DNA from: Bacilli bacterium
GTDB taxonomy: Bacteria > Bacillota_I > Bacilli_A > RF39 > UBA660
DNA: 64,000 nt
Direction: 5' to 3'
NCBI GenBank assembly: GCA_051872415.1
Contig: JBJEDW010000042.1
Location: 56,850-120,849 of the forward strand
Below are positions 31,205 through 59,042 of the stretch, one piece after another. A model generated the notes under the pieces. The model worked only from the letters and a program-made list of their open reading frames with translations. It had not been told where the DNA came from and ran no database searches. Made by a program: the position numbers and the translations under genes. Positions within the stretch are counted from its first letter, which is position 1; the number at the start of each line of letters is the position of its first letter.

Positions 31205-32225
31205 TCAACTAGAAGGTATCTTTAACTGTTGCCCTATTGACAACAAATCACTCGTTAAATTATTATAACTCTTAAGTTCACTTACACTTATTCCATAATT
31301 ATTCGCTATCTTCCACAAACTATCTCCTGATTTTACTATATAAATTGTACTAACACCACCACTTGGTATCTTTAATTGTTGCCCTATTGATAATAAATCA
31401 CTTGTTAAGTTGTTATAACTCTTAAGTTCACTTACACTTATTCCATAATTATTTGCTATTTTCCACAAACTATCTCCTGATTTTACTACATAAACCACCC
31501 CAGTCTCTTCTTCTTTCTCACTCGGAATAAACAAAAGTTGACCTATATTCAAATTATTACTAGTAAGATTATTAGCTTTTTTTAATTCATCCACACCAAT
31601 TCCATAACTAGTGGCAATCTTCCATAAACTATCGCCTTTAACTACCACATAATAATTAGCCCCTGGCAAAGGCGCATATTTAACTCCTGTATAAATTGCT
31701 ATTGCACGTACAACAGCTTCGGCATACTTTAAATAATCTTTTTTTATCCTACTAGCATCATTACTATTATCAACATAACCAAATTCAACCATAACAGTCT
31801 CGTAATCAGGAGTATCTCTTAAAAGAACATAATAATCATTTTGTGTATTCTCTGGATCTCTAAGTTGATAATATTTATTAACAACTCCTCCAGAAGTAGT
31901 AACTTGATCTGCTATCTCTTCAGCAAAATCATCACTATTCCTAAGAGCATAAATAATTTCTAAACCCTCTTCTCCACCTTTATTCAAATGATTAGAAACT
32001 ACTATTACATTTTTATCATTGCCAAAAGCAGAAGTTATAATATTAACCCTTTCTTCATCCGAAATAGTCCTATCAGTACTTCTAGTAATAATATTTTCTA
32101 TTCCCAAATCATCAAGTCTATCTTTAATATAATTAGAAATTAAAAGAGCATAATCTTTTTCTACAATAGCATTACCTTGATTACCAGGATCACTTCCTCC
32201 ATGGCTGGTATCGGATAAACCCAGA
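31205..32225 (-). pseudogene. N-acetylmuramoyl-L-alanine amidase with 3 C-terminal LysM repeats; 5' end (about 10 codons plus promoter) missing
   Basis: Frame is open from TAG at about 32226 with no start. Reads ..SDTSHGGSDPGNQG.. (Amidase_3 zinc-binding region), then 3 LysM repeats. The first ATG (31205..32107 in the ORF track) lies well inside the catalytic domain. Confidence 0.7.
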
Positions 32226-32258
32226 AACTATATTTTTTATTATTTTATAGGTTATACT

Positions 32259-33866
32259 TTATAAATCAAGATTCCACTCTATCTTAATCTCTCTGGTATT
32301 GGTTTCTTTATTTAATGCACCAACATATATTTTTTCTATAAATTCATCCACAATTATTCTAGTTAGTTTTTTAATATGTTTATACTTTTTAAGTATGCTT
32401 TCAATGTCTTTAGAGTTTTCTTTTCTCTCTTTTGTTTCATCAAGTTGTTTTTCTATTTCTTCTAGTCTTAATTGATATGATTCAACATCCTTTGTATATT
32501 CATCTCTTAACATTGAAAAATCACTATCGGATATTACACCTTTCAACTTATCTGTATAAAGATTTTTAAAATATAATTTGCTTTCATTTATCTTCTTTTC
32601 AAGATTTGCTTTTTCCTTATTTAAATTAGTAATTAAAATATCTTGTTTATTTTCTCTTTCTAATGTTGCGTTATATTCATCTTCAAGTAATTTCTTATTA
32701 CACTTTTTTAATAATTCATTTATAGCATCAAGTACATAATTTTCAATAATATCATATCTTATTGATCTATTATTATCACAAGTATGATATTTTTTACTAC
32801 CTTTGCATTGTAGATATGCTCTTTTTTGCATAACTCCATCAGCACATTTAATATTGCATTGATTTCTCATAAAGATTCTTCCACATTCAGCACAATATAC
32901 TTTACTGCTTAATATATGTACTTTACCATCTTCTTTTGCTGGTCTATGATGATTCTTTAATCTTTTTTGAACTAAATACCATGTTTCATTATCAATGATT
33001 GCCTCATGAGCATTTTCTGTGACGCTCCATTCTGATTTAGGAACTTTTTTTGACTTATGATTTTTATAACTAATATTTGTTCTTTTACCTTGTACTAATG
33101 TACCATTATAAGTTTCATTTCGTAGCATTCTTGCTATTGTATCTGATGTCCATATTCCAGTTGTATCATAATCAAAATTGCAACATACGAAATTACTTCC
33201 AATAGATTTTTTATAAAGAGATGGACATAATATTTTTCTTTCATTTAGACTAGCACATATTCTATGATAACCAAGTCCATTTTTATATTTTTCAAATATC
33301 TCTCTAACAATGGGGGCAACATTTTCATCAATAATAAGTTTATGCTTATCATTAGGGTCTTTCATATAGCCATAAGGTGCAAAACTCCCCATAAATAAAC
33401 CATCATCTCTTTTATTTTTCAACGATTTCTTAACATTGTTAGATAAATCCTCTAAATACCACTCATTAACAAGTCCATTAATTTGTCTTGATTTCTTGTT
33501 AGCCTCATTGTTAGTATCAGCATTATCAACTATACTTACAAATCTAACTCCCCATTCAACAAACTTGTTATGTAGATATTTCTCTATTACTTCCATATCT
33601 CTTGAAAATCTACTTTGTGTTTTACATAATACAATATTTATTCTTCCATTTTCACAATCATTAATTAATCTATTAAAATCTGGTCTTTCAACTCCTGCTC
33701 CAGAATAATCATCATCTGAATAAATATCTACAATTTCCCAACCTTGATCCAAAGCATATTTTAAAAGCATACTCTTTTGATTAGTGATTGACTCACTATC
33801 ATCATTTTTATTTTTCTTATATCTATCCTCATCCGATAGTCTGCAATATACACCTACCTTTTCCAT
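32259..33866 (-). CDS. Large serine recombinase (resolvase N-terminal domain, recombinase and zinc-ribbon domains)
   Basis: MEKVGVYCRLSDEDR catalytic Ser motif. 535 aa with a Cys-rich C-terminal domain. Its stop lies 33 bp from the truncated amidase. Confidence 0.9.
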   Translation of the reverse strand: MEKVGVYCRLSDEDRYKKNKNDDSESITNQKSMLLKYALDQGWEIVDIYSDDDYSGAGVERPDFNRLINDCENGRINIVLCKTQSRFSRDMEVIEKYLHNKFVEWGVRFVSIVDNADTNNEANKKSRQINGLVNEWYLEDLSNNVKKSLKNKRDDGLFMGSFAPYGYMKDPNDKHKLIIDENVAPIVREIFEKYKNGLGYHRICASLNERKILCPSLYKKSIGSNFVCCNFDYDTTGIWTSDTIARMLRNETYNGTLVQGKRTNISYKNHKSKKVPKSEWSVTENAHEAIIDNETWYLVQKRLKNHHRPAKEDGKVHILSSKVYCAECGRIFMRNQCNIKCADGVMQKRAYLQCKGSKKYHTCDNNRSIRYDIIENYVLDAINELLKKCNKKLLEDEYNATLERENKQDILITNLNKEKANLEKKINESKLYFKNLYTDKLKGVISDSDFSMLRDEYTKDVESYQLRLEEIEKQLDETKERKENSKDIESILKKYKHIKKLTRIIVDEFIEKIYVGALNKETNTREIKIEWNLDL

Positions 33867-34674
33867 TTACTACAACACCTCAATTCCGATTAGTTGTAGC
33901 AAACATAAATCTACAAGGACATTATATATCATATTATGAATTATTTAAAACTACACTATTTTCTTCCTCTGCTAATATAACTCGTAGTAATTTTTTTGCT
34001 ATGATATCTTTTAATTTATTTTCTTCAATTTCTTTATTATCTTTTATTATATTTATTACATTATAATTTACCTCCATTTTTCTATACCCCCTTTATGATG
34101 TTCTATAAAGAATATCCTCCTATTTTAGTCATATATCAATCCTCCTTAAACTCTTTTAATAAATATTCCATATATGCCTGTTCTTCAGGACTTGCTAGAT
34201 CATCTACACAAACTTCTGGATGTTCCATCCAATATGGAATAAATTTATTATTTTTATTATAATTATTTCTTGTATATTCTTTTCTTTTATATTGGTAATT
34301 TTTTACTATGTTTTTATTCTCATTTTTTCTAACACCTTAGAATTTTCTTTACTCACAATATCTTCATTAAGATAAATTCTTCGTTATCCATTTATAAATT
34401 TAACACTTATATAATTTTTTCTTTTTAAATTATTAATTAAATTAGATATTGTTTTTTCTTTAACACTTAATGTATTAGCAAAGTAACTATTACTAGCATA
34501 GCAATACTCCTTATTATTTAATAGTGAGTTAATCACACCATAAACTAAACTTATCTATTTGGGAACAAGTTTGGTCATTTAATATTATTCTTGGTACAAC
34601 AATAAAATACCTTATAAAAGCCATGTGTTCCTTTCAAATAAATATAGTTCCAGTATCCTAACACCATATTATTA

Positions 34675-34735
34675 GTTTGAACTATAACATATTTTAAAGA
34701 ACTAATTAAAAAAATATATATGTTATAGTTCAAAC
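34675..34735. repeat. Perfect 18-20 bp inverted repeat AGTTTGAACTATAACATAT-N25-ATATGTTATAGTTCAAACT
   Basis: Read directly. Lies in a gene-poor stretch with decayed HTH-like ORF fragments. Confidence 0.6.
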
Positions 34736-35116
34736 TTGTATTCATCCTATATTTCTATAAGATAGGTTCTGATATAAGCCTATATATCTTACCGAGTCTC
34801 TTATAACTAGCGTTCATTGTTACTTTTCTAGTTAAGTGTTATTGTGTACATTCCGTTTGAGTATTCTTTATATATTAGATATTTTAATTCTTTAAACAAT
34901 AATAAGTTCAAAAACAATTGTTGGAATACACCAGATAGTTTACAATCTGAAATATTTCCAAGTGTAAAGCAAAAGAAAAAGAACTGAAGAAAAATTAATC
35001 ATTTAATTTTTCAACAACTCCTTGCTTTGTTTATTATTATTTATATAAATTATTATTTACTACAACTAGTTCTATTTACATTGGATTTATTCGTACTTTG
35101 ATGACACTATTTAATT

Positions 35117-35164
35117 CAAAAAAAGCGGCAAAAAAGCGGCAAAAAAGCGGCAAAAAAGCGGCAA
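35117..35164. repeat. Four tandem copies of an 11-bp unit (GCGGCAAAAAA), iteron-like
   Basis: AAAGCGGCAAAAAAGCGGCAAAAAAGCGGCAAAAAAGCGGCAAATG, period 11 bp, immediately 3' of gene 35168..36838. Confidence 0.8.
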
Positions 35165-35167
35165 ATG

Positions 35168-36838
35168 CTATTTTATTTTCCAGCATGAGCCACCTGATTT
35201 TGCATCATTATATATTTTTCCTTCTTTTTTTAAAACATCTAATAAATATCTAACTCTACTAACTTTATTCTTATTATCTAATGATTTAGGAAGTTTATCA
35301 TTTAATAGTGCTATTATCTCTTTTCTACTTGCCGAACCATATTCATTCAAATATTTTAGAATCATTTCCATATAAAATTCATTTTCTAAGCCAGAGTTAT
35401 ACACATATTCTTCTTTAGCTCCTGTTATCTTGGCAATATCTGATGAAATATAAATTTTAGGATATCTTCCTTCTATTAAATTATCTTTTCTTAAATAATC
35501 GCTTTGTTCTTTTGTAATTTCAAAACCTTTTTGTACCCTATCTAATAACATCACTTCATCTATATCTAAATTCGTTTTTTCAAATAATATTTTACTATAT
35601 TTTTCATCTATTATCTTTCCGTATAAAGTTACTTTAACACGATTATCTTCACTCAAATCATAATCAGGCATTGGAAAAAACTTTTTCTTTTGAATATCAT
35701 ATACTCTTCTTATCCCACTACCAACAGTATCAATCATATTTAAATTAACCATCGCATTAGCTAAAAATTGATTTCTATAATAAGGTGATGAAAAACCATC
35801 TTTTAAAACATTTTCAATTGTTTCAGGAATAAAATTTCCTTCATTAGTTATTATTAACTTATCTTTGTATTCCATAACATTTATATTGCCACGTAATTTA
35901 TAATCTTGGTGAACGATACAGTTGTTAATTAACTCACGAAGTATATAATTATCGTATTGATCTACTTCATTTGGAAATAAAGTGTTATCATTAACCATGT
36001 ATCTATATCTCAAATTTCGTATCTTCGATTTTAATTTCTCAACATTGATAATAAATGGTATACCAAAATGTTCATAATCGATAACATTAAAATCATCATA
36101 AAGTTTCCATGTCATTTTAGGTGTATAGCCATTCATTAAATAATCATCATCATTCTTTCCTAATAATAGCATACAAGCCATAGTAATTTTGTTATTTAAT
36201 GTTAATTTAACTTTATTTAAAAAATCAATATCAGATAAATTATCTATTTCATCAGATATACTTTTTCCTTTATATTTAACCTTAAATTGTTCTCTAGCCA
36301 ATTTGATTGCTTCCTTATCTAAATTATCTATTGTTGCATTTTCTATTACTTGCCTTGACCAGTCATAATTTGCTGTTGCTTTAATTTGTTCTATCTTATT
36401 TGATGTTAAAGGAGATATTGATTCACCATTTCTACCATATGGAAATCCTTTCCAATTAATTGGTGTACCAGAAGCAGCTGGAACTTGAAACATAATTACT
36501 CTATTATGATCCTTTGTAAATTCATATATTTCAATAAACCCTATGTTATCTGTTGTATTATCAGAGATTTGTTTCTTCACTTTGTTAAAATTATTATCTC
36601 TATAAAAATTGGTATTAGTTAATTCATGCGTCTTATCATCAACACCAAAAACTATCCAAGAATATTGTTTATTTTTTAAATTTGCTTCATTACCTAAAGC
36701 TGAAAAATATTTACCCAAAGTATCAATATCGAAATTGTTTTCTGCTCTTTTAAATTCTACGCATTCATCCTCTGGATTTAATAATAGCTCATCTAAAATT
36801 TTATTTAACTCCTCGTTATTTTTATACAAAGCAATCAC
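35168..36838 (-). CDS. COG2865-type putative transcriptional regulator (AlbA_2/Schlafen-like DNA-binding domain + HATPase_c_4 + C-terminal wHTH)
   Basis: N-terminal ECVEFKRAENNFD...LGKYFSALGNEA...IVFGVDDK, typical of the AlbA_2 domain. 556 aa. Confidence 0.6.
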   Translation of the reverse strand: MIALYKNNEELNKILDELLLNPEDECVEFKRAENNFDIDTLGKYFSALGNEANLKNKQYSWIVFGVDDKTHELTNTNFYRDNNFNKVKKQISDNTTDNIGFIEIYEFTKDHNRVIMFQVPAASGTPINWKGFPYGRNGESISPLTSNKIEQIKATANYDWSRQVIENATIDNLDKEAIKLAREQFKVKYKGKSISDEIDNLSDIDFLNKVKLTLNNKITMACMLLLGKNDDDYLMNGYTPKMTWKLYDDFNVIDYEHFGIPFIINVEKLKSKIRNLRYRYMVNDNTLFPNEVDQYDNYILRELINNCIVHQDYKLRGNINVMEYKDKLIITNEGNFIPETIENVLKDGFSSPYYRNQFLANAMVNLNMIDTVGSGIRRVYDIQKKKFFPMPDYDLSEDNRVKVTLYGKIIDEKYSKILFEKTNLDIDEVMLLDRVQKGFEITKEQSDYLRKDNLIEGRYPKIYISSDIAKITGAKEEYVYNSGLENEFYMEMILKYLNEYGSASRKEIIALLNDKLPKSLDNKNKVSRVRYLLDVLKKEGKIYNDAKSGGSCWKIK

Positions 36839-36868
36839 CTCTTTTTTATTTTATCATACTTTTAATAA

Positions 36869-39232
36869 TTATAGTGTCATTTGACAATTATTTTCAATAA
36901 TTTCATATCCTACTTTTTCATATGCTTTTTTTCTTTTTAAAAACATATTTCTAATCATTGAAAAATTATCATCAACATAATCATAAACTATTATTTCTTT
37001 TTTATTCTTATTTTTTCTATGTAGTCTTCCTGTATATTGTACTATTCTATTTACACTAGATATTGGCATGGTTAAGAATAATACTTCTAATGTTGAATCA
37101 TCAAAACCCTCACCAATACATGAACTTGTAGCAATTATAATTTTATTTTCATTGTTTTCTTTAATATTAGAATTTAGTTCATCATATTTTTTAAGTATTT
37201 TCTTACCTAATCCACCGCGATACACAATTATATTATTGGTTATTTTTGATAATTTTCATATAAATATTCTAAATGATCAATTCTTTCCGTTAATACTAAT
37301 ACATTTTTACCATTTTTAAACTCTTTCTCAACATCTTTTATGACCACTTCATTTCTAATAACATCTTTCGAAATTAAATCATATATTTCATTAATTTTAT
37401 AATCTGTTACATTTTTGTTAACAAAATTTAAATGAACACTTTTACTATAAACTTTCATTGATAAATTTAATTTTTTATTATATTCTTTCATATCAACTCT
37501 ATATCTAATATCACCACATTGCATTTTAATAATTGGTGTATGCCCATTTTCTTTTTCTGGAGTTGCAGATACACCATATACATATTTAGCATTCATCATA
37601 TTTAATGCTGCTTCATAGGTATAAGCAGATAAATGATGGCATTCATCTATAATTATCATTCCATAGTTTTTAACAATATCATTAAATTTACCATCATTGT
37701 AAATAGTTTTAATACTAGCTACATCAATTTTATTTGTTAAAGTGTTTTTATTATCACCAATTTGTCCCACTTCTTCAATATTTAAAAATTCTTTTATTCT
37801 TTCTTTCCATTGCTTTAATAGTGATAAATTAAATGTAACTACAAGAGTATTAACATTTCTTGCCTCAACCAGTTTACAACATATAACTGTTTTACCAAAC
37901 CCAGTGGGTGCCTCAAGTATTCCATTTTTCATACTTCAACATTTCTTCTAGTGCTATACTTTGCTCTTCTCTTAATTTACCATTGAATTTTATATTTAGT
38001 TTTTGACCTTTATTTCTCTTATCAATAATATTCATCTTTATATTATTTTGATTACATAAATCAGATAAATACTCAAGTTTACCTCTAGGAATCATCAAAT
38101 ATTTTTCATCTTCTTTGCTGCAATCTATTACCATAGGAACATTATGAACAGACATTCTCATTCTTTGTTTTCTAAAAAATTCTGGATTGGCAAAAGTTGC
38201 AAGTCTTCTGAAACAATTTTTTACAACCGCACTTAAATTTGCTTTATCTATATAAATCATATTATCTAAGATAATATCAATACTTTTAGGAAAGTCAAAA
38301 TTATTTTTTTGCTTATTTTTAATTTCTTTTTTAATTTCTACATATTCATTACTAATATCTATTGTATTTTCAGATAAAATTCTTATTACACTAAATACAT
38401 CATCATAGTTCATTTTTTTTACACTACTTAAATAACTATATTGATCATCATAAGCAATAAAGTTTCTATCCAAGAAAGCAGTGTTATTATATTTCATAGG
38501 TTCATTTTGAAATGGAAGTGCGATTAAATTACCATAACCACCTTTAGGCATAGTATCTTGATTTGGAAACATTCTATCAAAAGAATCAATTTTTAAATTA
38601 TCACGTATTTCCATTGTTTTGGATAGCAATAGACTGCCCATCTTTCTAGCTGTTAATGCTTTTATATTATTTTCAAAGAAAATCCATACATGAATACCAT
38701 GGCCTGATCTACTACGCTCAATAGAAATAGGAACATTATACTTGTCACAAACGCTTGCAAAAGCAAGCACATCTTCTTTAATATCATTTTCATTTTTTTT
38801 ATCATCAAAATCAAAAGCCAAAAAGTAACAAGATTCATCTTCTAACATAGGATAAATTCCAATAGGATTACTATTAAATAAATGATTACTAATTACTTCT
38901 TTATCTATTGGTTTATCAATCCAATAATGACAATCTCTGCATTTTTTACCCATTGTTTTATTACAAACATTTTTATTCCATTCATTAGCACATTTAGGTA
39001 TATAATATTTCTTACTTGGATCTTTTTTATCAATTGATAGATAAGGATATATACTATCTCTACCTTTAAAATAACTCATAAAAACATTAACTTTTTCGTC
39101 ATTAGTAAAATTTATTTTAGGTTGATTATCATAAGTTTTAAGTAACTTCTTTAATTCATTAATTTCATTAATCAATTTCTTCGCTTCAAGTGTTTTTTTA
39201 TTTATGGTTTCAATTATCTCATTTCTTTGCAT
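36869..39232 (-). pseudogene. PrimPol (AEP primase-polymerase) fused to SF2 helicase, broken into three ORFs by two frameshifts
   Basis: 37913..39232 has the AEP motif RSGHGIHVWIFF and Cys clusters. 37240..37932 has helicase motifs I to III (APTGFGKT, DECHH, SAT). 36869..37225 has motifs V and VI (QYTGRLHR). The ORFs overlap or abut. Confidence 0.65.
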
Positions 39233-39349
39233 ATTATGCCCCTTAAAAATAATAAAGTTACTATATTATGCAATATTTTTAATTTTTTTTAAAGATTTAA
39301 AAGGATTTTGCATATTTTTCCGGTATATATACAATAGGAGGTGATGTTT

Positions 39350-39475
39350 ATGCAAGAATTAAACAAAGCAGAAATGCTTAATATCAATGGTGGTTCATCA
39401 ATAGTTGCTTGTACATATTATGGATTAGTTAAAATCACAAGATGTATCATCAAATTCATAAGTTCTAGATTCTAG
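39350..39475 (+). CDS. Double-glycine-leader class II bacteriocin-like peptide (41 aa), unannotated
   Basis: AGGAGGTG RBS 6 nt upstream. MQELNKAEMLNINGG|SSIVACTYYGLVKITRCIIKFISSRF, with an LNKxEMxxIxGG leader. Confidence 0.6.
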   Translation: MQELNKAEMLNINGGSSIVACTYYGLVKITRCIIKFISSRF

Positions 39476-39489
39476 TAAAAATTGCAGAA

Positions 39490-40146
39490 TTAATTTTTCT
39501 GCTTTTTCATTATTGTAAAAATATATCCAATAACACTTATTGGTAATAATATATACCAATAATTACTGTAATTAAGTAAATTATTGCTCACTGCATATAA
39601 ATTATGAATCAAATGTAAAAGAATTGGATAAATTAGGTTATTTGTTTTATAAAATGAATAATTCCATATTAAACTTATTCCTAACAAAATAATAAAACCA
39701 TCAATATTATAGATATGTATTAAGGCAAAAACAGTAGATGTTAATAGTATAGAAATAAAAATATTTAACTTTTTATTTAATTTTTTATATAATCCAAATC
39801 TAAATATTATTTCTTCAAATATTGGTGCAAAAATACAAGTAGTCACAATTTCAGCAATTATTTCAAAAATATTTGAAGGAATTTGAACATCAGTCGTTGA
39901 TATTGGAATAAATGTAACTAATTGTTCTAATAATATCCTAATAATAAATGATAAAAACATGTATTTCAATAAAATATTAACACTAATTTTTCTAATATTT
40001 AAACATTCTCTTATGTCAATTTTATCTTTACTTTTTAAATCATTTATTACTGCAAGTCCAAATAAGATTACTATCACAATATAAAATAATCTAGAAAAAT
40101 AAAAATCATTTATAACTTTATCTACCATTTTATCACCTATCTTCAT
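39490..40146 (-). CDS. CPBP family intramembrane metalloprotease (CAAX/Abi, bacteriocin immunity-like)
   Basis: EEIIFRFGLY motif 1 and FALIHIYN motif 2. Convergent with the peptide gene. Confidence 0.75.
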   Translation of the reverse strand: MKIGDKMVDKVINDFYFSRLFYIVIVILFGLAVINDLKSKDKIDIRECLNIRKISVNILLKYMFLSFIIRILLEQLVTFIPISTTDVQIPSNIFEIIAEIVTTCIFAPIFEEIIFRFGLYKKLNKKLNIFISILLTSTVFALIHIYNIDGFIILLGISLIWNYSFYKTNNLIYPILLHLIHNLYAVSNNLLNYSNYWYILLPISVIGYIFTIMKKQKN

Positions 40147-40273
40147 ACTAATTATACCATTTTGATGATTATTTAAAAAGATACTTCTTAAAAAGTAATT
40201 GGTTTGCTTATATTTGTATAGATTATAATTTGTTACAACTAATTCTTTTTATACTGGGTTTAATCTCACTTGG

Positions 40274-40306
40274 GTGTCCTGCATCAATAGCAACCTTATA
40301 ATTCAT
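40274..40306 (-). other. Amidase gene 5' stub (MNYKVAIDAGH) with RBS, fused to element-end sequence
   Basis: GGTGATGTTTATGAATTATAAGGTTGCTATTGATGCAGGACAC, then unrelated sequence. About 50 bp identical to the 41027-41075 copy. Confidence 0.6.
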
Positions 40307-40666
40307 AAACATCACCAATTAATTTTATGATAGTATTAATAAATAATTGTCAAAAACTATACAAAAAAGGAGCTGTAATAAAATAATTTAATTCAATTCT
40401 TTTATAGTACATATAATTATTTTCAGCTTTTAATAATTTATTTATGACTTTTCTATTATCCAAAAAGAGAAACATCATTTTATTTTGACATTTCTCTTTA
40501 AAAGTTAATTTATTTATTTATTTTCTATTTTCTTTAATTCTGCTAACTCTATTTGAGCTATTGATTTTTTCGGAGTTGGCAAATTTTCTGGCAAAGTACC
40601 ATCTAATCTTTTAATCGTTTCTCTCACTGCTTTTCCTACTTTATGATGAGTCATATTAGCATCGTG

Positions 40667-40897
40667 TTAGTTATTTATATTTTCTTTTTTTAGTTTTGCT
40701 TCAATTTGAACAATACAAAATAAATTATCTGCTAATTCTTCACTGCCCATATAATCTAATATTTCATCTTTATCAGTAAGCCCTATTCGGTTTGCTATTT
40801 GCTTAGCATTTTCTCCACCATACAAACCTTGATAACCATAATTAGTAAATTTACCACAATTGTCTAATCCTTCAAAAATAACTAACACGCCTATCAC
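40667..40897 (-). CDS. Hypothetical small protein (76 aa)
   Basis: ORF only. Lies in a region of decayed phage-like fragments; a DinD/Bro-like C-terminal fragment MTHHKVGKAVRETIKRLDGTLPENLPTPKKSIAQIE is at 40505-40645 on the minus strand. Confidence 0.3.
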   Translation of the reverse strand: MIGVLVIFEGLDNCGKFTNYGYQGLYGGENAKQIANRIGLTDKDEILDYMGSEELADNLFCIVQIEAKLKKENINN

Positions 40898-41023
40898 CTA
40901 ACATATACATTATAGCATTAAAATATGACTTTTTATCAAAAAAGACAATCTATTATTAAATAAATCATCCTTATATTTACTAGGTTTTATAGCTATTCTT
41001 CATATTTGGGATATTCCAACACC

Positions 41024-41059
41024 TTAATGACCTTCATCAATAGCAACCCTATAATTCAT
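41024..41059 (-). other. Second amidase 5' stub (MNYRVAIDEGH-stop), followed by a diverged copy of the element right-arm sequence
   Basis: ATGAATTATAGGGTTGCTATTGATGAAGGTCATTAA, then AGGTGTTGGAATATCCCAAATATGAAGAATAG, about 70% identical to the 40240-40273 arm. Confidence 0.5.
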
Positions 41060-41110
41060 AAACATCACCACTTAATTTTATGCAAAGTAAAAAGAAATAA
41101 TTATTAGAAA

Positions 41111-50171: not shown

Positions 50172-50606
50172 GTGATAAATATGGCAATAGTAAATTATAC
50201 AACTAAAGAAAAAGAATTACTTGCAAGAATAATGAGAGCAGAAGCACTTGGAGATGGAAATCTAGCCATGCTAATGGTTGGGAACGTTATTATAAATAGA
50301 ACAATTGCTAACTGCCTCACTTTCACAAACTTAAGAACCATAACAGATGTAGTGTATCAAAAAAATCAATTTTCTGGAATTAATTCTTCTCTTTTTGTAG
50401 GGAATCCAACAACAAAAGAATTAGAACTAGCTGAAAGAATCCTAAGAGGAGAATACTATCACCCTGCAACAAATGCCCTATGGTTTTTCAATCCAGGAAC
50501 CAATAACCCTTGTCCAACTCTCTGGTACGATCAAAGAAATTCAGGAAAATACAAAAGCCATTGTTTTTATATACCATACCCAGGTGTATGTAGACAACTT
50601 CATTAA
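50172..50606 (+). CDS. SleB/CwlJ-type cell wall hydrolase (Hydrolase_2 domain)
   Basis: LLARIMRAEALGDG...MLMVGNVIINR...VVYQKNQFSG is typical of the spore cortex-lytic catalytic domain. Confidence 0.75.
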   Translation: MINMAIVNYTTKEKELLARIMRAEALGDGNLAMLMVGNVIINRTIANCLTFTNLRTITDVVYQKNQFSGINSSLFVGNPTTKELELAERILRGEYYHPATNALWFFNPGTNNPCPTLWYDQRNSGKYKSHCFYIPYPGVCRQLH

Positions 50607-50706
50607 AAAAATCTCTATAACAGAGAATTTTTTTTATTAAAAACAGATCAAAATATCAAAAAATATCTTAATCTATTATTAAATTTTACCAAAAAATAGA
50701 AATAAA

Positions 50707-51647
50707 TTATGGAATCAAAAGAGTTTGTCCTATTTGCAAAATATCACTAGATAAATTATTAAGCTTAATCAAATCATTAACATTAACATCATAAATTTGA
50801 GCAATTTTCCATAAACTATCTCCACTCTTAACAATATAAGTTTCATATTCACTAGTCTTTGGAATAACAAGCTGTTTACCTATACTAAGCATATTACTGC
50901 TTAAATTATTAGCCTCCTTAAGTTCATCAACTGTAATATTATATTTCTTAGCAATACTCCACAAACTATCACCTGATTTTACTACATAAATAATTTGATC
51001 ACTATTATTTTTATCAATACTAGGTATTAATAGTTGCTGACCTATTTGTAATAAAGTAGTACCCAAGTTATTATAATCAACAATATCATTAACACTCACA
51101 CCATATTGATTAGCAATATTCCACAAAGAATCACCAGATTTTACAGTATAAACAACATAATCACCAGGAGAAACATTAGAAGAAGTCGGAATAACCAAAG
51201 TTTGTCCAATATTAATAAGATTACCACTAAGTCCATTAGCATTCTTTAAACTTTCAACACTAATATCATATTTATTAGCTATTCCATATAAACTATCACC
51301 TTTTTTAACAACATAAGTATTTGCACTAACCCCAGGAAGCGAATAAGGAACACCTATATAATCCACAACAGCTTTAACAACAGCCTCTACATAATCATCT
51401 AAGTTATTCTTAAGCTGACTAATATCATCCTTAGGACTATCAATAAAACCATATTCTACCAAAATAGGTTCAGTCTTTCCTGTTTCTCTATGAATAAAGT
51501 AATAATCCTTAGTAGGATCACTAGGAAGTCTTCTCTGATAATAACTACGAATATTTTGTCCTTCACGAGCTATATTATTAAGAACAGACTTAGACAAAGT
51601 ATCACTATTTCTTAAAGCATAAACTACTTCAGCACCATCGCCACCTG
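50707..51647 (-). pseudogene. C-terminal about 313 codons of a LysM amidase (end of catalytic domain plus 4 LysM repeats), 5' part severed
   Basis: Frame opens at TGA right at the junction. Reads SPGGDGAEVVYALRNSD.., about 90% identical (protein) to 55040..56233. Junction after CACCT 51643-51647. Confidence 0.75.
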
Positions 51648-51699
51648 GTGATGGTCATTGTGTAACATTTTTCTAATTTCTTAATATTTTAAAACTTTA

Positions 51700-52130
51700 T
51701 ATTGTGCTTTTCACACCATTCTCTAAATACATAATTATAATAATCAGATGAAAAGTTGCGATATTCTTCATATAAATCATGTTTTTTCAAACAATCATAA
51801 AATTTATCCATATAATTGTGGTTTCTTAATATATAAAATAATTCTGTCTTGTTTGTTTATCATCCCAAATATTTTTTACAAATTCAGACATTGTTGATTT
51901 ATGATCAATAAATTCATAACTTGGCAGTGAATAAATATTTAAAGAAGCTTTAGATAGTAATTTTTCATAATCTTCATCAATTGGATTGTCAGGTAAATGC
52001 TTTTTTTAATAATCCCATGGATTTACTATTTCCATTATATCCGTTTTAAAAAAAACACATTCCCTGTCACGTATATTCATAAGAATATCTGCTATCGTAT
52101 ATTTTTTTAAATTATTCATTATTATCACCA
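51700..52130 (-). pseudogene. Decayed ORF with multiple in-frame stops
   Basis: Minus-strand translation gives recognisable segments (KKHLPDNPIDEDYEKLLSKASLNIYSLPSYEFIDHKSTMSEFVKNIWDDK) interrupted by stops. Confidence 0.4.
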
Positions 52131-52153
52131 TCTATCTAACATTTAAATTCTTA

Positions 52154-53041
52154 TTAATTATGACTCTTTTTATTTTTCGTTAAATTTTCTATAACATACT
52201 CATGAAGTCTTGGCATCGTAATTAATAAATAGACATAACGTTCCAAATACATAAAGATTTCGGAAGAATCGCCTCTACTATAATAACCAGGGTTTGCTTT
52301 ATCACTTTCTTTTATAGTACCATTAAAAAACTTAACAAAATTTGAATTGCATTTATTAACTCTATTTAAATATTCTTTAGCTTTCTTATCATTTCCAATC
52401 TTATAGTATAATGCAAATAAAGGAAATAACATTTCTAAATTTTCTTCTGGATATTTTTTATATAATTTCAGCATATCATTTTCTTCTTCTAATGTAGCAA
52501 GTATTGCCATTAATAAATATCTGGCTCCCATATTGTCATTTTCATTTAATCTTAAAACTTCTCTACATATACTTTCTGCTTGGCGTAATTTTCCTTCTTC
52601 TAATAAATATTCTGCTTTAACAACCAGCCCTCTAATATATGGTCTTGTTTCAAATATTCCATAAAAATATCCAATGTTTTCTTTATCAAAATATTTCTCT
52701 TTTGTTAATCTATTTTTTTCAGCTTCTAAGCCATCATCTAAAAGTTTCATTCTTTTTATTCCATTTTCCTCTAAATCACATTGAAATAAAATTGCATCAA
52801 AACATTCTGGCGATTTTTCATATGCTTTTTTTGCTAACTTTATAGCCTCTTTCTCGTTTCTTGCATTTTGTGCTTCTTCTAATATTTCATAAGCATCATC
52901 AAGTGGTGTATTTTCATATTCTATTTCTCCATTGTTATACATTTTTATAAATTCTTGTAATTTTTCATTTGCTTCATCAATGCTTTCAACATTATTATTT
53001 TTTAAATATTCTTGTAACATATTATTAAACTTATTATCCAT
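52154..53041 (-). CDS. Hypothetical helical-repeat (TPR-like) protein, 295 aa
   Basis: Repeated amphipathic helix pairs (AIKLAKKAYEKSPECFDAIL, EGKLRQAESICREVLRLNENDNMGARYLLMAI). No catalytic motif. Confidence 0.45.
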   Translation of the reverse strand: MDNKFNNMLQEYLKNNNVESIDEANEKLQEFIKMYNNGEIEYENTPLDDAYEILEEAQNARNEKEAIKLAKKAYEKSPECFDAILFQCDLEENGIKRMKLLDDGLEAEKNRLTKEKYFDKENIGYFYGIFETRPYIRGLVVKAEYLLEEGKLRQAESICREVLRLNENDNMGARYLLMAILATLEEENDMLKLYKKYPEENLEMLFPLFALYYKIGNDKKAKEYLNRVNKCNSNFVKFFNGTIKESDKANPGYYSRGDSSEIFMYLERYVYLLITMPRLHEYVIENLTKNKKSHN

Positions 53042-53066
53042 TTACTTCACCTTCTACTTTCTATTT

Positions 53067-53501
53067 TTAACAATCTTTTTCATATTCTATTTTATTATCA
53101 ATACACCATTGTTCAGCAATTTTCTTATATTCATTATCTCGAAATTTATACCAATCATCAGTTATATTATTGTAATCAGTTATTTCTCTAAACCTATGAA
53201 AAGTTCCGTTTCCTCTAGTTACGTTAAATAATTCATTTCTTATTAAATCATTACTTATATTACTAATAAAATCCTGCATAATATCATAATCATTTTTTGT
53301 ATAAAAATTAAACATACTAATGATATCATCATTGAATTCATCATCTTCTGTATATGTAGATTCCTCTTTGTTAAAATCCCATTGCCACAAAACTTCATTT
53401 GTTTTAGTATTAAAATAACAACTTGTTTCCATACTAACATCATATAATGCATCTCTTATTTCAGATAATTTTATCATATTTACTTCACCTACTACTTTCA
53501 T
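53067..53501 (-). CDS. Hypothetical acidic protein, 144 aa
   Basis: ORF 26 bp downstream of 52154..53041. Preceded by the TGCAGAATTCTCTGCA palindrome at 53526-53541. Confidence 0.45.
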   Translation of the reverse strand: MKVVGEVNMIKLSEIRDALYDVSMETSCYFNTKTNEVLWQWDFNKEESTYTEDDEFNDDIISMFNFYTKNDYDIMQDFISNISNDLIRNELFNVTRGNGTFHRFREITDYNNITDDWYKFRDNEYKKIAEQWCIDNKIEYEKDC

Positions 53502-53586
53502 TCTGCGGTAATTATTGTAGAACTATGCAGAATTCTCTGCACATTTTTATTATTAAATATTTCTTAATAACATAGGATTTTTCATT

Positions 53587-54801
53587 TTAAAATTCTTCAC
53601 TTAATAAAAAATCAATCAAATTCAAATGAATAATACCATCACGAGATAAATCTATCTTATCAAGAGAAATAACATATTTTGGATAATTATCTTCTATAGA
53701 TTTATACGCTCCAAATTCTCTTTCAATAGTACTTTCATTGCCTTTCATTTCATAAGTGACTTGAATATATTTAATATTTCCATCTTTCTTTGCTAAAAAG
53801 TCAACTTCACCATTTTTAGTTTTACCAATATATACTTCATAGTTTCTATTTATTAATTCGTTATAAACAATATTTTCTAAAACAACATAACTTTTAAATT
53901 CTGGATTATTATTTTTAATTTGGGCAATTCCTAAATCAGTTGCATAATACTTATTTAACGTTTTTAAAACTCCTTTACCTGCAATATCATATCTATATAC
54001 CTTTTTAAGTATTAATGCTTTACATAAAGCATCTATATAATTATATAATGTTTCATTAGATATTTTTTTATTTTCTTTATCTAGATATTTTATAATATTA
54101 TCAGAAGAAAACTCACGACCAGCAGTTTCAATCAAATATTGTAATATCATATCAAACAAAACTGTATCTTTTAAATTTAATCTTTTTACAACATCTCTTA
54201 AAATAATTGAATCATATACACTATGAAGATAATTTTTAATATCAATTTCATTTGTAAACTCACATCTATTAGGAAGTCCACCCCATTTAGCGTAATCCCA
54301 AAAAGTATCTAAGTCTTTTCCATCTTTATTTGTTAAAGAAACATACTCTTTATAAGATAAAGGATTAATATTAAATGAAACATATCTTCCTGATAAAACT
54401 GATGACAATTCATCTGATAACATTTTACTATTAGAACCAGTTAAAAATATGCTTATATTTTTTATTGAAGCTCTTAATGAATTAACAACTTTTTCAAAGT
54501 TATCTACATTTTGAATTTCGTCTAAAAACAAATAATATATTTTATTATCTTGAATTTTATCTTTTACGTATTTATTTAGCTTTTTATAATCTAGTAATTC
54601 TTCAAATTCAATAAATTCAAAATTAATAAATATTATATGTTCTTCATCAATTTTTCTTTTTTCTTTTAATTCTTCTATTATTTGATTTAGAATAACTGAT
54701 TTACCGCATCTTCTTATACCAACCAATATTTTAATTAAATCTGAATCATAAAATCCTCTTATTTTAGATAAATAATCTTCTCTTAAAAGCATATTAATCA
54801 C
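53587..54801 (-). CDS. AAA ATPase of the AAA_14 + DUF4143 family
   Basis: VGIRRCGKS Walker A, LFLDEIQ Walker B and a C-terminal DUF4143-like region. Confidence 0.7.
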   Translation of the reverse strand: MINMLLREDYLSKIRGFYDSDLIKILVGIRRCGKSVILNQIIEELKEKRKIDEEHIIFINFEFIEFEELLDYKKLNKYVKDKIQDNKIYYLFLDEIQNVDNFEKVVNSLRASIKNISIFLTGSNSKMLSDELSSVLSGRYVSFNINPLSYKEYVSLTNKDGKDLDTFWDYAKWGGLPNRCEFTNEIDIKNYLHSVYDSIILRDVVKRLNLKDTVLFDMILQYLIETAGREFSSDNIIKYLDKENKKISNETLYNYIDALCKALILKKVYRYDIAGKGVLKTLNKYYATDLGIAQIKNNNPEFKSYVVLENIVYNELINRNYEVYIGKTKNGEVDFLAKKDGNIKYIQVTYEMKGNESTIEREFGAYKSIEDNYPKYVISLDKIDLSRDGIIHLNLIDFLLSEEF

Positions 54802-54833
54802 CTCTGATTACATTATATATTATTTTTATATTT

Positions 54834-54871
54834 TTGTAAAGTTATTACGGTTAATCGTAATAACTTTACAA
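54834..54871. promoter_or_regulatory. Perfect 16-bp-arm palindrome TTGTAAAGTTATTACG-GTTAAT-CGTAATAACTTTACAA
   Basis: Read directly. Lies between the amidase stop and the start of the DUF4143 ATPase. No flanking T run, so operator-like rather than a terminator. Confidence 0.5.
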
Positions 54872-55039
54872 ATGTAAAAATTATTACACCAGTAGTATAT
54901 TGGTCAAAAAATAAAATTCTATAAATTATATTCAATTTATTTCAAACAATCCATTTTTTATCAAAACACAAAATAGATTAAAATATCTACAAGAATATCT
55001 CAATCTATTATAAATAATTACCAAAAAATGGAAAATAAA

Positions 55040-56233
55040 CTAAGGTATCAAAAGAGTTTGCCCTATTTGCAAAACATCACTAGATAAATTATTAAGCTTA
55101 ATTAAATCATTAACATTAACATCATAATTTTGAGCTATTTTCCACAAACTATCACCACTTTTAACAACATAAGTTTCATATTCACTAGTCTCAGGTATAA
55201 TAAGTTGTTGTCCTATACTAAGCATGTTACTACTTAAATTATTTGCATCTTTAAGTTCATTAACAGTTATATTATATTTCTTAGCAATACTCCATAAACT
55301 ATCACCTGATTTTACTACATAAATAATTTCATCACTATCAAGAGTAACACTAGGTATTAAAAGTTGTTGTCCAATTTGTAATAAAGTAGTTCCTAAATTA
55401 TTATAATTGGCAATATCATTAACACTAACACCATATTGATTTGCAATCTCCCATAAAGAGTCACCCTTTTTAACAGTATAAACCACATAATCACCTGGAA
55501 GAACATTGTTAGAAGCAGGAATGATTAAAGTTTGTCCAATATTAATAAGATTACCACTAAGTCCATTAGCACTCTTCAAGCTTTCAACACTAACACCATA
55601 TTTATTAGCTATTCCATATAAACTATCACCCTTTTTAACAACATAAGTATTAGCACTTACACCAGGAGCAACATAAGGAACACCTATATAATCCGCAACT
55701 GCTTTTACAACAGCTTCAACATAATCATCTAAATTATTCTTAAGTTGACTTATATCATCCTTAGGACTATCAATAAAACCATACTCCACTAAAATAGGTT
55801 GGGTCTTCCCAGTTTCCCTATGAATAAAGTAATAATCCTTAGTAGGATCACTAGGAAGTCTTCTTTGATAATAACTACGAATATTTTGTCCTGTTTTAGC
55901 AATATTATTAAGAACAGATTTAGCTAAAGTATCACTATTTCTTAGAGCATAGACTACTTCAGCACCATCGCCACCTCCCGCATTTATGTGATTAGAAATA
56001 ACTATCACATCATCTCTATTACCAAAAGCATTAAGTATCCTACTAACTCTTTCAGTCTTAGAAAGCGTCTCATCAGTATCACGAGTAAGTTTAACAGGAA
56101 TTCCAAGTTCATTAAACCTATCATACATATATAAAGCAGCCTCTAAAGTAAAATCTTTTTCCTGTAAATTTCCATTAATAGCACCAGGATCAACTCCTCC
56201 ATGTCCTGCATCCACTACTATTTTATAATTCAT
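55040..56233 (-). CDS. N-acetylmuramoyl-L-alanine amidase (Amidase_3) with 4 LysM repeats, intact
   Basis: MNYKIVVDAGHGGVDPGA...SNHINAGGG...E. The C-terminus has four LysM repeats of the type YVVKKGDSLYGIANKYGVSV. Confidence 0.85.
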   Translation of the reverse strand: MNYKIVVDAGHGGVDPGAINGNLQEKDFTLEAALYMYDRFNELGIPVKLTRDTDETLSKTERVSRILNAFGNRDDVIVISNHINAGGGDGAEVVYALRNSDTLAKSVLNNIAKTGQNIRSYYQRRLPSDPTKDYYFIHRETGKTQPILVEYGFIDSPKDDISQLKNNLDDYVEAVVKAVADYIGVPYVAPGVSANTYVVKKGDSLYGIANKYGVSVESLKSANGLSGNLINIGQTLIIPASNNVLPGDYVVYTVKKGDSLWEIANQYGVSVNDIANYNNLGTTLLQIGQQLLIPSVTLDSDEIIYVVKSGDSLWSIAKKYNITVNELKDANNLSSNMLSIGQQLIIPETSEYETYVVKSGDSLWKIAQNYDVNVNDLIKLNNLSSDVLQIGQTLLIP

Positions 56234-56421
56234 AAACTATCACCTAAAATATCTTATGAAAAAAATCAAAAATGGTGCAAATATATTAAATGTAAACAAA
56301 ACAAAATTACCAAAAATTACCAAAAAAAATAGGTTGACATAGTCAACTCTAAGCCTCTCCATTCCAAAAATATAAAGGAATTTAGAAAGTTTTCGCAAAT
56401 AATACTATTAGGAGGTGTTAT

Positions 56422-56550
56422 ATGTCAAATTTAAATAATTCAGAACTAATGAATATTTATGGCGGTAGAGCAGGATTTGCTTTACCTAATTTTGATGCTT
56501 ATATCAAAATGTTTAATTGGATTTATAAAACTGTTAAATCCTGGTTCTAA
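56422..56550 (+). CDS. Double-glycine-leader bacteriocin-like peptide (42 aa), unannotated
   Basis: TAGGAGGTG RBS. MSNLNNSELMNIYGG|RAGFALPNFDAYIKMFNWIYKTVKSWF. Confidence 0.6.
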   Translation: MSNLNNSELMNIYGGRAGFALPNFDAYIKMFNWIYKTVKSWF

Positions 56551-56644
56551 TTTTTTACAGTAGTATTTTTGCTACTGCTTTTAATTTTTAATAATATATA
56601 AATGATTAAACATATAACACCAAATACAAAGTAAACTATATTAT

Positions 56645-57060
56645 TCAATTAATATATCCTATCATTGCATAAATATTGTGTATAAAATGCATAATTATTG
56701 GATATATTAAATTATCCATTTTAAAGTAAGAATAATTCCATATTAAACTAATAACTAATAGTATTACAAAAACATCTATCCCATAAAAATGTATTAATGA
56801 AAATATTATTGAAGTTAATAGCATAATTATAATATTAGATTTAAATTTTTTATTTAAATATTCATATAATCCAAATCTAAATATTATTTCTTCAAAAATT
56901 GGAGCAAACAAACACATAGTAACTATTTCTAAAACTATAGACCAAAAATTCGTTGGAATATTTGAAATAGTTTCATCTATTGGTAAAAAATAAATTGTTT
57001 GTTCAATTATATTCTTAATATTTCTAAAGGAAAGTGTTTATCAATATTTTTTACTTCCAT
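56645..57060 (-). pseudogene. CPBP-family (Abi/CAAX) immunity-type protease, N-terminal part disrupted
   Basis: ORF 56645..56917 carries EEIIFRFGLY and SLIHFYG. Upstream TM-coding sequence is out of frame. Confidence 0.55.
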
Positions 57061-57189
57061 AAAACCACCTATAATTTTTTTATATAATACCTGATATAAT
57101 TTTTAATTTTGCCTGGTATTATGAAACAACATTTAAAAATTATTCTTTATTTAAATATTTTCAATTTATCCTATCAATCTATAGTTTGA

Positions 57190-58482
57190 TTAATTTTTTA
57201 AATTTCCAATAGAAACAACATATACCCCATCTTCACGAACATAAGATAATTCCGAAGCTGTTAACACCATTAAAAATGCCGGTTCCCCGCTTTTAGCTAT
57301 ATCTATTTTATCTTTAAATTGGATTAATGTCTTAGCAGCATCATCAATTTGTTTTGCTCCCATTTTAACTTCAATTGCACCCCATTTACCATCAGAAGTT
57401 TTTAATATAAAATCGACTTCAAAATCTTTGTTATCTCTAAAATAGAATAAATCTGCATTTATAGATTCGGCATATATTTTTAAATCTCTATAACACAAGT
57501 TTTCAAAAATAAATCCAGTAAAATTTAAATCATTTATTAAATTTTCTTTTTTTAATCCTAAAGACGCTATTGCTATAGAAGGATCTATTAATTCTAATTT
57601 AGGACTTGTTCTTAATTGTATTGATGATCTTAAATTCAAATTAGTTGCAGGAACATATTCGAGAACAAATAATTTTTCTAACGTTAATAAATAATCATCA
57701 ACGGTAGGTCTTGAAATTCCTAGATTAAATAAATTTGATGTATCGTTTACAATTGTAATTTTATTTGTTGCTGTTGAAACATTTCTACTAATACTTTTTA
57801 ATAAAGCTTCCATTTTATATTTATCTCGTTCAATGCCATCTAATGATTTTACATCTTCATTAATTAAACTTTTAACATATTCTGTAGCAACTTTAAATTT
57901 ATTTTCACCAGCAATATTTAATGATTCAGGCCATCCACCTCTTATCATTACATTAATAATATCATCAAAAGATAAACTAGAAACTCCAGATATATCTTTA
58001 CTATTTATAATGTCTAATAATGATACTTTTCCATTTGATTCTCCAGATTCATACAATGACATTGTTCTCATCATTAGCTTTGTTATCCTACCTGTACCAG
58101 TATGCATAATCTCGTTTTCAACTGGTCTTGCAGAACCCGTCAAGATATATTGTCCTTTTAAACTAGTATGATCAATATCCATTCTAATAGAATCCCATAT
58201 AACAGGATACATTTGCCATTCATCAAATAATCTTGGTTTTTCACCTTCTAGAAACAACGATGGTTTTGTATTACTAATATTATCATATTGAATTTTTTTA
58301 TCAGGATCTTGTAATTCAACTAAACTATTACAAAATTGTTTCGCAGTCGTTGATTTTCCACACCATTTTGGTCCTTCTATCACAATTGCTCCCATATATT
58401 CAAGCTTATTTTTTATTATATTATCTACAATTCTAGGCATATATTTTTTCATAAATGAATCCCTCCAAATATTATTATACAC
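57190..58482 (-). CDS. AAA ATPase of the AAA_14 + DUF4143 family (second copy, diverged)
   Basis: IEGPKWCGKST Walker A and a DUF4143-like C-terminus. Confidence 0.7.
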   Translation of the reverse strand: MYNNIWRDSFMKKYMPRIVDNIIKNKLEYMGAIVIEGPKWCGKSTTAKQFCNSLVELQDPDKKIQYDNISNTKPSLFLEGEKPRLFDEWQMYPVIWDSIRMDIDHTSLKGQYILTGSARPVENEIMHTGTGRITKLMMRTMSLYESGESNGKVSLLDIINSKDISGVSSLSFDDIINVMIRGGWPESLNIAGENKFKVATEYVKSLINEDVKSLDGIERDKYKMEALLKSISRNVSTATNKITIVNDTSNLFNLGISRPTVDDYLLTLEKLFVLEYVPATNLNLRSSIQLRTSPKLELIDPSIAIASLGLKKENLINDLNFTGFIFENLCYRDLKIYAESINADLFYFRDNKDFEVDFILKTSDGKWGAIEVKMGAKQIDDAAKTLIQFKDKIDIAKSGEPAFLMVLTASELSYVREDGVYVVSIGNLKN

Positions 58483-58649
58483 TATTTTTATTATTTTACA
58501 AATTTTATTTTACATTTTGTACTGTTTATGTTTTACGTTTTGTACTTTTTTTATTTTGCATTTTGCCTTTTTTATTTTATGCGCATTATTCATATTTAAT
58601 ATTATATAAAAAACTAAACATAATAACTTTTTATTTTTTATCTCAATAC

Positions 58650-58946: not shown

Positions 58947-59042
58947 AAACTATCACCTAAAATATCTTATGAAAAAAAGCAAAAATGGTGCAAATATATT
59001 AAATGTAACCAAAACAAAATTACCAAAAATTACCAAAAGAAA

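Follow-up and report, generated by a model that had tools for sequence, protein, structure and literature searches.

Introduction

What has parted a cell-wall amidase gene from its own promoter and first codons, and to what kind of mobile DNA does the intervening sequence belong? The question arises in a 64,000-nucleotide stretch of contig JBJEDW010000042.1 from a Bacilli bacterium (assembly GCA_051872415.1), the whole of which is called the window here. Within it, an Amidase_3 gene with LysM repeats is split by a segment that carries a large serine recombinase (LSR) gene at one end. The initial annotation of the window had proposed an integrative element driven by this recombinase, and empty sites together with dozens of related elements now sustain that proposal. 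It is very probable that positions 32204-40274 are an integrated mobile island, one of a family whose LSR recombines an attachment site (attP) of ~44 bp with one constant point in Amidase_3 genes, the CA of a histidine codon.

A split amidase gene and its empty sites

The two parts of the amidase gene lie as follows (a slash marks a junction in all sequences given here).

31205-32201, minus strand: 3' part (codon 12 to stop) of the Amidase_3 gene with three LysM repeats; homology to the empty-site loci stops at 32203
40274-40360, minus strand: stub1, a copy of the intergenic region (IG1, 40307-40360) followed by amidase codons 1-11 (40306-40274)

The 3' part, which runs from 31205 upward to the TGG at 32199-32201, has neither a promoter nor a start codon, and its reading frame is bounded by a TAG at 32228-32230, which lies 28 nt below the stop codon of the recombinase gene (32259-32261). 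The start and first 11 codons (MNYKVAIDAGH) are found at 40306-40274 on the minus strand, where they run into unrelated sequence (PSEIKPS...). Both had been recognized in the initial annotation, which described an amidase lacking its promoter and N-terminal codons and a missing start 8 kb away fused to foreign DNA; the loss amounts to 11 codons, and the position of the TAG has been refined. Joining of the two parts in silico, proposed there as a test, was followed by a search of the rebuilt protein against the protein collection. This search returned intact homologs of 343-394 amino acids (aa) at ~86% identity, with the N-terminus MNYKVAIDAGHGGSD...; the intact homologs among the matches open with MNYKVAIDAGHGGSDLGNQGN.

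Four metagenome contigs (L001-L004), each encoding an intact homolog, provide empty sites that are syntenic with the window on both sides. Upstream, the conserved genes encode PGA_cap/GDSL, nitroreductase, tRNA-synt_1b and UvrD proteins, and downstream they comprise a 151-aa open reading frame (ORF), HSP20 and FeoB. The uninterrupted target is also present in L013. Nucleotide homology to the empty-site contigs ends at window positions 40275 and 32203, and the empty sites restore MNYKVAIDAGH/GGSD exactly. The inserted DNA is accordingly 32204-40274, or 8071 bp (8073 bp with one copy of the CA core). That this segment is an insertion in a chromosomal Amidase_3-LysM gene, parting the promoter and 11 codons from the remainder, is confirmed.

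Attachment sites and the crossover point

Each junction contains one of the hybrid attachment sites, attR and attL.

32202-32224, minus strand: attR, with the core CA at 32203-32202 and the P arm CTGGGTTTATCCGATACCAGC at 32224-32204, the outer 9-mer of which occupies 32216-32224; the same layout follows the recombinase gene in 38 related loci
40175-40276, minus strand: attL and the conserved left end, with the core CA at 40276-40275, the P' arm CCCAAGTGAGATTAAACCCAG at 40274-40254 and ~80 bp more that are common to relatives

Comparison of the empty target site attB (GGACA/TGG) with attL (GGACA/CCC) and attR (AGCCA/TGG) identifies the common dinucleotide CA as the crossover, within the codon of the zinc-binding histidine of the motif D-x-G-H/G-G. 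These two bases are all that attL and attR have in common, and the crossover suggested initially, the CA in GGACA/T, is the one that the empty sites reveal. The 9-mers TAAACCCAG (32216-32224) and CTGGGTTTA (40254-40262) each occur once in the window (a chance expectation of ~0.13 occurrences per strand, by our arithmetic for 26% GC) and lie symmetrically, each exactly 12 bp from the CA core. They had been read as inverted P and P' arms 11-12 bp from the junctions, an interpretation that the empty sites and dozens of related elements confirm, and that agrees with this spacing of 12 bp on each side and with their uniqueness in the window. The rebuilt attP of ~44 bp, CTGGGTTTATCCGATACCAGC-CA-CCCAAGTGAGATTAAACCCAG, is an imperfect inverted repeat that reads ...CCGATACCAGC-CA-CCCAAGTGAG... 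across the core. Among complete relatives, the closest are L084 and L085, and both arms agree with theirs.

The P arm has also affected how the truncated gene is recorded. In NCBI, the corresponding protein (P0014, 'MAG: Bacilli bacterium', where MAG denotes a metagenome-assembled genome) is entered as a complete LysM protein of 339 aa starting MGLSDTSH. Its annotated start is a CTG within the P arm, which holds a D and an H in register with the lost D-A-G-H (31205-32224). Genome annotation can thus miss such events, P0014 being recorded as complete.

A chimeric MAG contig that joins strain variants would also place unrelated sequence beside both gene halves; the genome is metagenome-assembled, and several related contigs break inside the recombinase gene. 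Such an artefact is nevertheless very improbable, as both junctions match the att structure of ~38 independent assemblies, both flanks are syntenic with the empty sites, and the copies of the amidase stub in the window differ by ~15%, so that an assembler could not have merged them.

The recombinase module

Three genes lie next to attR.

32259-33866, minus strand: large serine recombinase, 535 aa, intact, with Resolvase, Recombinase, Zn_ribbon_recom and DUF4368 domains
33934-34077, minus strand: orf47, 47 aa, intact; always directly upstream of the recombinase gene in relatives, with 66-91% identity in 21 loci
34139-34624, minus strand: remnant of an HTH_36 gene with two frameshifts and one in-frame stop; an intact ORF of 162 aa in relatives

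All four Pfam domains of the recombinase are matched (Resolvase, 3e-24; Recombinase, 2e-25; Zn_ribbon_recom, 2e-11; DUF4368, 2e-08, or 34.7 bits against a cut-off of 25), and a YCRLS motif is found at residues 7-11. The nearest solved structures are the catalytic domains of the TP901-1 integrase, of TnpX (2mhc) and of a recombinase from a Clostridioides difficile conjugative transposon. In NCBIfam, the protein falls under every curated cut-off (for CcrB, 139 bits versus 900). Its relatives in the protein collection number in the thousands, and the top 120 are 59-94% identical and all 523-553 aa in length. The window recombinase retains the catalytic motif and, at 535 aa, has the length of its relatives (534-535 aa); the complete set of four domains is likewise present in relatives of 59-94% identity. 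The product of orf47 has no match in Pfam, PADLOC or NCBIfam; its constant position makes it a candidate accessory or directionality factor. The recombinase may still be able to excise the complete 8,073-bp unit at the outer att sites, which would restore the amidase gene.

A family aimed at one amidase motif

To place the island among its relatives, recombinase contexts were drawn from exact-protein look-ups, from species-representative genomes scanned with the rebuilt amidase, and from metagenomes scanned with the recombinase. In 39 loci, the stop codon of the recombinase gene is followed 35-75 bp on by a P arm, the CA and the H/GGxDPG codons of an Amidase_3 gene. These 39 sites present 33 distinct flanks (B' arms), all of the form CA/YGGNGGNNNNGAYCCNGG, with the CA invariant. 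Among 36 metagenome loci examined, where the recombinases are 36-94% identical to that of the window, 30 show H/GGxDxG amidase codons after the recombinase gene (49-94% identity for those 30). The amidase-codon flank is also seen in L005-L012, L022-L024, L029 and L031. The P arms fall into at least six types, which track the recombinase subfamilies.

At the other end, attL of the form ...(V/I)DAGH codons CA/CCCRAGT...AAACCCA is found 7.5-11 kb upstream wherever the contig reaches that far, and complete relatives with a matching attL and ...DAGH/ stubs are therefore elements of 7.5-11 kb. Among them, L005-L007, L084 and L085 encode a Mob_Pre relaxase, while L010 and L011 carry MobL and genes of a type IV secretion system (T4SS; a coupling protein and a VirB4-like protein). 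This gene content marks the family as one of mobilizable and conjugative elements whose target is a single protein-motif-coding sequence, the Amidase_3 H/GG. The window island is a member of this family and not an isolated oddity. The family that targets the amidase motif, one of gut-bacterial elements, is large and apparently undescribed; a search of the literature for serine recombinases with amidase targets returned nothing relevant.

Several loci differ in their surroundings. Some family members sit in CwlD-like amidases. In L005-L010, the amidase is cut twice: only ~85 codons follow the element at the first site, after which a second motif is interrupted by other mobile or defence DNA (AAA_21, Abi_2, HipA, PIN, type I restriction-modification, HamA, TnpV and ParAB genes). 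The P arm of L117 (11584-11700) abuts G+C-rich non-amidase DNA, and a different ORF follows the recombinase gene in L103, L105, L106, L118 and L122 (L121 is also listed), that of L103 being a DinD gene.

A prophage or phage satellite would account for a serine integrase, which is common in temperate phages, and an Amidase_3-LysM protein is endolysin-like. This origin is close to excluded, given that no capsid, tail, terminase or portal domain occurs in any ORF of the element, that its relatives carry relaxases or T4SS genes, and that the amidase lies in conserved chromosomal synteny. The initial remark that this is not a standard prophage layout was therefore correct, as the element has no virion or packaging genes.

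Composite structure and decay of the window copy

Only two parts of the window element are common to relatives: a left end of ~100 bp (40275-40175, ~85% identity) and a right block (34892-32184, 90-92% identity to L084, L085 and L095), which contains the HTH_36 pseudogene, orf47, the recombinase gene and the P arm. An additional left end lies between them.

35020-35110, minus strand: inner, degenerate copy of the family left end, CA/TCAAAGTACGAATAAATCCAATGTAAATAGAACTAGTTGTAG..., which aligns with six family left ends

There is thus more than one element end within the outer att sites. With left-end copies at both 40275 and 35110, the island consists of two parts, a 2.9-kb recombinase module that includes the inner left end at ~35110 and a 5.2-kb cargo segment, whose own left end is better preserved. 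This arrangement suggests an accretion of two elements, the left one of which would have lost its right end.

Decay is evident in the element genes. Five inactivating lesions are spread over two of them (the HTH_36 gene and an AEP-helicase gene of the cargo), and no ORF of 32204-40274 contains a relaxase domain in Pfam. The flanking host genes are equal or nearly equal in length to their counterparts in L001, and the lesions are therefore concentrated in the island. Transfer of the island would need the machinery of another element.

These lesions raise the possibility of a dead, fixed relic that is unable to excise, its recombinase ORF being intact by chance or through the recency of decay. 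The absence of a relaxase fits such a fate, as does a neighbourhood in which elements have decayed into relics (the stub2 relic and two relic ends at a paralog, described below). The recombinase is, however, full length with its catalytic motif, orf47 is intact, and both att arms match those of L084 and L085. A dead relic is for these reasons judged unlikely, with a chance that is still appreciable.

Some observations weigh against an integrated island with a fixed target and a composite build. A free or circular form was sought with an attP 15-mer in viral contigs, where all 90 matches are due to chance (the best, when extended, has 27/44 mismatches). Six of the 36 metagenome recombinase loci have no amidase after the gene, and the specificity is therefore not absolute, or these elements have been rearranged. 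The accretion is founded on a single degenerate inner end, and the sequence just left of the inner CA bears a weak likeness to a P arm. Finally, the single-base indels may be consensus errors of the MAG and not true pseudogenisation.

Cargo of the island

Between the inner and outer left ends lie the following features.

35119-35165, no strand assigned: 11-bp tandem repeat AAAAAAGCGGC, perfect, 4.3 copies, directly after the stop codon of the AlbA_2 gene
35168-36838, minus strand: SLFN_AlbA_2 and HATPase_c_4 (COG2865-type) protein, 556 aa; a distant homolog has the same position in L254 and L255
36869-39232, minus strand: AEP (PrimPol)-SF2 helicase gene, broken and split over three ORFs, with AEP and ResIII/Helicase_C domains
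39341-39475, plus strand: 44-aa peptide with a double-glycine (GG) leader, ELNKAEMLNINGG/; L254 has a homolog linked to its AEP-helicase gene
39490-40146, minus strand: CPBP/Rce1-like membrane protease, 218 aa

The cargo proteins have no homolog in the other family elements examined. Two of the gene identities first proposed are secure: the Schlafen-type COG2865 regulator has the SLFN_AlbA_2 and HATPase_c_4 domains, and the PrimPol-helicase is frameshifted by two single-base indels (an additional A at ~37926-37930 and a missing base at ~37256) relative to P0241, an intact homolog of 787 aa with 91% identity. The best matches of the AEP domain are AEP-TOTE in Pfam ('TOTE conflict system') and PrimPol in PADLOC. 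A literature search on the Pfam 'TOTE' system returned nothing, so that the meaning of AEP-TOTE here is that of the Pfam name alone. The suggestion of a replication-initiator relic is not supported; it is one of two readings of a gene that is named AEP-TOTE by Pfam and PrimPol by PADLOC and travels with the GG-peptide and AlbA_2 genes.

In L254 and L255, an intact AEP-helicase gene (787 aa) is followed by the distant AlbA_2 homolog, and L254 (388-3968) also has a homolog of the GG-leader peptide ahead of it. As this co-occurrence shows, the AEP-helicase, AlbA_2 and GG-peptide genes move together, apart from the recombinase module. The GG-leader peptide gene is convergent with the CPBP gene. 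Both members of the proposed bacteriocin module, a GG-leader peptide with a CPBP immunity gene, are present, while the role of the CPBP protein in 'bacteriocin immunity' is only presumed. The cargo may serve defence or competition; PADLOC makes no credible defence-system call for either the AlbA_2 or the CPBP protein.

The 11-bp repeat, GCCGCTTTTTT on the minus strand, is G+C-rich for this genome and separates the stop codon of the AlbA_2 gene from the inner left-end relic. It was considered as an iteron, as first labelled; the repeat is real and the label is not supported, given that the repeat has no adjacent initiator gene, is not conserved, lies in window-specific DNA and follows the AlbA_2 stop.

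Earlier insertions at the first site

Directly upstream of stub1 are traces of an older event that the initial annotation had missed (stub2 at 41027-41059).

41027-41110, minus strand: stub2, an older, diverged intergenic copy and MNYRVAIDEGH-stop, ending at the same CA (41029-41028)
40361-41026, minus strand: relic between the stubs, with the P'-like arm TTAAGGTGTTGGAATATCCCAAAT and DinD gene fragments at 40514-40654 and 40667-40897

Stub2 stands directly after the stop codon of the PGA_cap gene, is ~15% diverged from stub1 and is joined to the P'-like arm TTAAGGTGTTGGAATATCCCAAAT, so that an older attL relic lies at 41027-41059. In the closest species locus (L013), the amidase is intact and has an almost complete DinD gene upstream of it. 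The same architecture as in the window is seen in L015, where an intact amidase is preceded by a relic attL, by 900 bp that resemble the left end of L085 and include a Fic pseudogene, and by a near-identical second intergenic copy. The first site of the amidase was thus occupied before the present island. One way in which a relic could come to stand beside a restored gene would be a small tandem duplication over the 5' end of the gene and the left end of the element, followed by precise excision of the complete copy. The two stubs might instead stem from an older element that brought a replacement amidase 5' end; this was set aside as the principal account, since a P arm that equals the B arm would not make an attP.

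A second motif site and a paralogous amidase

Interruption of amidase genes is not confined to the first site. In the set of ~51 related species-representative loci, the gene is whole in 24, broken at the first site in 5 (10%) and broken at a second motif, NHxNAGG/G, in 22 (~43%); the loci were chosen by peptide-word matches, and these fractions are rough. The second-site interruptions (L038-L057, L059, L062 and L068, at NHxNAGG/GDGAE) have P arms of at least four types, and the recombinases nearby are ~30% identical to that of the window. In L048, L051 and L052, both gene halves are found ~9.5 kb apart. The records of the relatives name uncultured Bacilli, 'Tenericutes', 'Mycoplasma', CAG:451 and CAG:914, and the hosts are presumably RF39-like gut bacteria.

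The window holds its own example at 50640-59072, where a paralogous Amidase_3 gene with four LysM repeats (catalytic domain 45% identical) is present in three forms.

58946-58650: N-terminal fragment, cut at NHINAGG/AEFSYHYK
56233-55040: intact copy
51645-50707: C-terminal fragment, preceded by TTACACAATGACCATCACCA/GG

The junction arms belong to two different element types, one L051-like and one L048-like, and no recombinase gene is left between these relic ends. The intact paralog was considered as the cargo of a single site-2 element, which was rejected because the relic ends derive from different element types. The duplicated flanks of the locus are 88-92% identical. Between the fragments are two AAA_14/DUF4143 ATPases, a CPBP fragment (56645-56917), a TPR protein and a UPF0158 protein. 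A Hydrolase_2 gene (SleB/CwlJ-type cell-wall hydrolase, 144 aa, 50172-50606) adjoins the C-terminal fragment and is the only spore-related hint in the window.

The frequency of these interruptions invites a functional reading, in which the island would be comparable to skin in sigK or SPbeta in spsM: a regulated 'intervening element', retained because conditional excision switches the amidase on. The geometry is the same, with a recombinase gene at one end, a cut inside a coding sequence and rejoining in frame. Interruption of the amidase is very common (~53% of the 51 related species loci, at two sites), and the family members in CwlD-like amidases would also suit such a role. Against it, the host appears to belong to a reduced, uncultured lineage of gut Bacilli, and the window host genes tested, a limited set, are housekeeping genes with no sporulation genes among them. 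The amidase itself scores 55 bits against a CwlD cut-off of 221 bits. Relatives with relaxases and T4SS genes are ordinary horizontally moving elements, the intact paralogous amidase (55040-56233) could buffer the loss, and the HTH_36 gene of the island is broken. Regulated excision is for these reasons a poor prospect. A broader and somewhat less improbable idea, still speculative, is that Amidase_3-LysM autolysin genes may be 'recombinase-gated'. Several unrelated families of serine-recombinase elements would compete for DxGH/GG and NHxNAGG/G, with the gene split in about half of the species. Reversible excision, along with the recurrent arrangement of a relic beside a restored gene, would then function as a switch that turns autolysin expression on or off heritably, or as an arms race for its control, and would not be neutral hitch-hiking.

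Comparison with known systems

Among characterized elements, Tn4451/Tn4453 and Tn5397 are small clostridial elements with a serine recombinase of the DUF4368 type, and Tn4451 has the Mob/Pre relaxase TnpZ. The crossover core of Tn4451 and Tn5397 is GA, and TnpX is a protein of ~700 aa. The island family resembles them in the combination of Resolvase, Recombinase, zinc ribbon and DUF4368 domains in the recombinase, in the TnpX catalytic domain (2mhc) being among the closest solved structures, in the pairing of the recombinase with a Mob_Pre relaxase in complete relatives of 7.5-11 kb, and in a 2-bp crossover. The island differs in its CA core, in its recombinase of 535 aa, and in having neither a relaxase nor a resistance gene. 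Unlike the loose, many-site targeting of Tn4451 and Tn5397, the 33 distinct targets are all CA/YGGNGGNNNNGAYCCNGG within Amidase_3 genes.

Work by Guedon and Payot on streptococci reportedly describes integrative mobilizable elements (IMEs), cis-mobilizable elements and their tandem accretion. The likeness lies in small elements with a recombinase (serine or tyrosine) and a relaxase in conserved genes, in decayed derivatives that keep their att sites, and in tandem composites, to which the two left ends of the window island would correspond. The host lineage, the target gene and the recombinase family are different, and accretion is here a reading of the sequence; in addition, the ORFs of the window island contain no relaxase domain, whereas an IME has a relaxase and an oriT of its own. 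With skin (SpoIVCA) and SPbeta (SprA/SprB), the island has in common an LSR element inside a coding sequence, where precise excision would rebuild the gene. It differs from them in that the limited part of the genome covered gave no evidence of a sporulation gene, of a host that forms spores or of developmental control, and in that family members are transferable.

The targeting of one motif has practical consequences. The conservation of the motif opens many hosts and many paralogs to a single element family. In a poorly known, uncultured gut lineage, mobile DNA piles up at two motifs of the same enzyme family, which is useful for finding islands and defence cargo, and the well-defined att sites could serve as integration tools. 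Furthermore, a defined attP/attB pair with a known core is now available for a recombinase of the DUF4368 type, a class generally held to target loosely.

This last point bears on the broadest comparison available. Among LSRs, the DUF4368 domain is present in 63% of those in the multi-targeting clade and in 0.73% of the site-specific ones, and complex target motifs are noted for some of the multi-targeting enzymes (Durrant et al., 2022; PMC10083194). In that study, multi-targeting is called when one 90% LSR cluster is associated with several 50% target-gene clusters, and by this rule the island family would be scored as multi-targeting. Amidase is not mentioned in its text or in the supplements searched. 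In contrast to the multi-targeting clade, the many targets here correspond to a single catalytic motif, conserved within one enzyme family. The apparent 'multi-targeting' of the island family is thus the targeting of a single conserved protein motif, and its recombinases are site-specific in practice.

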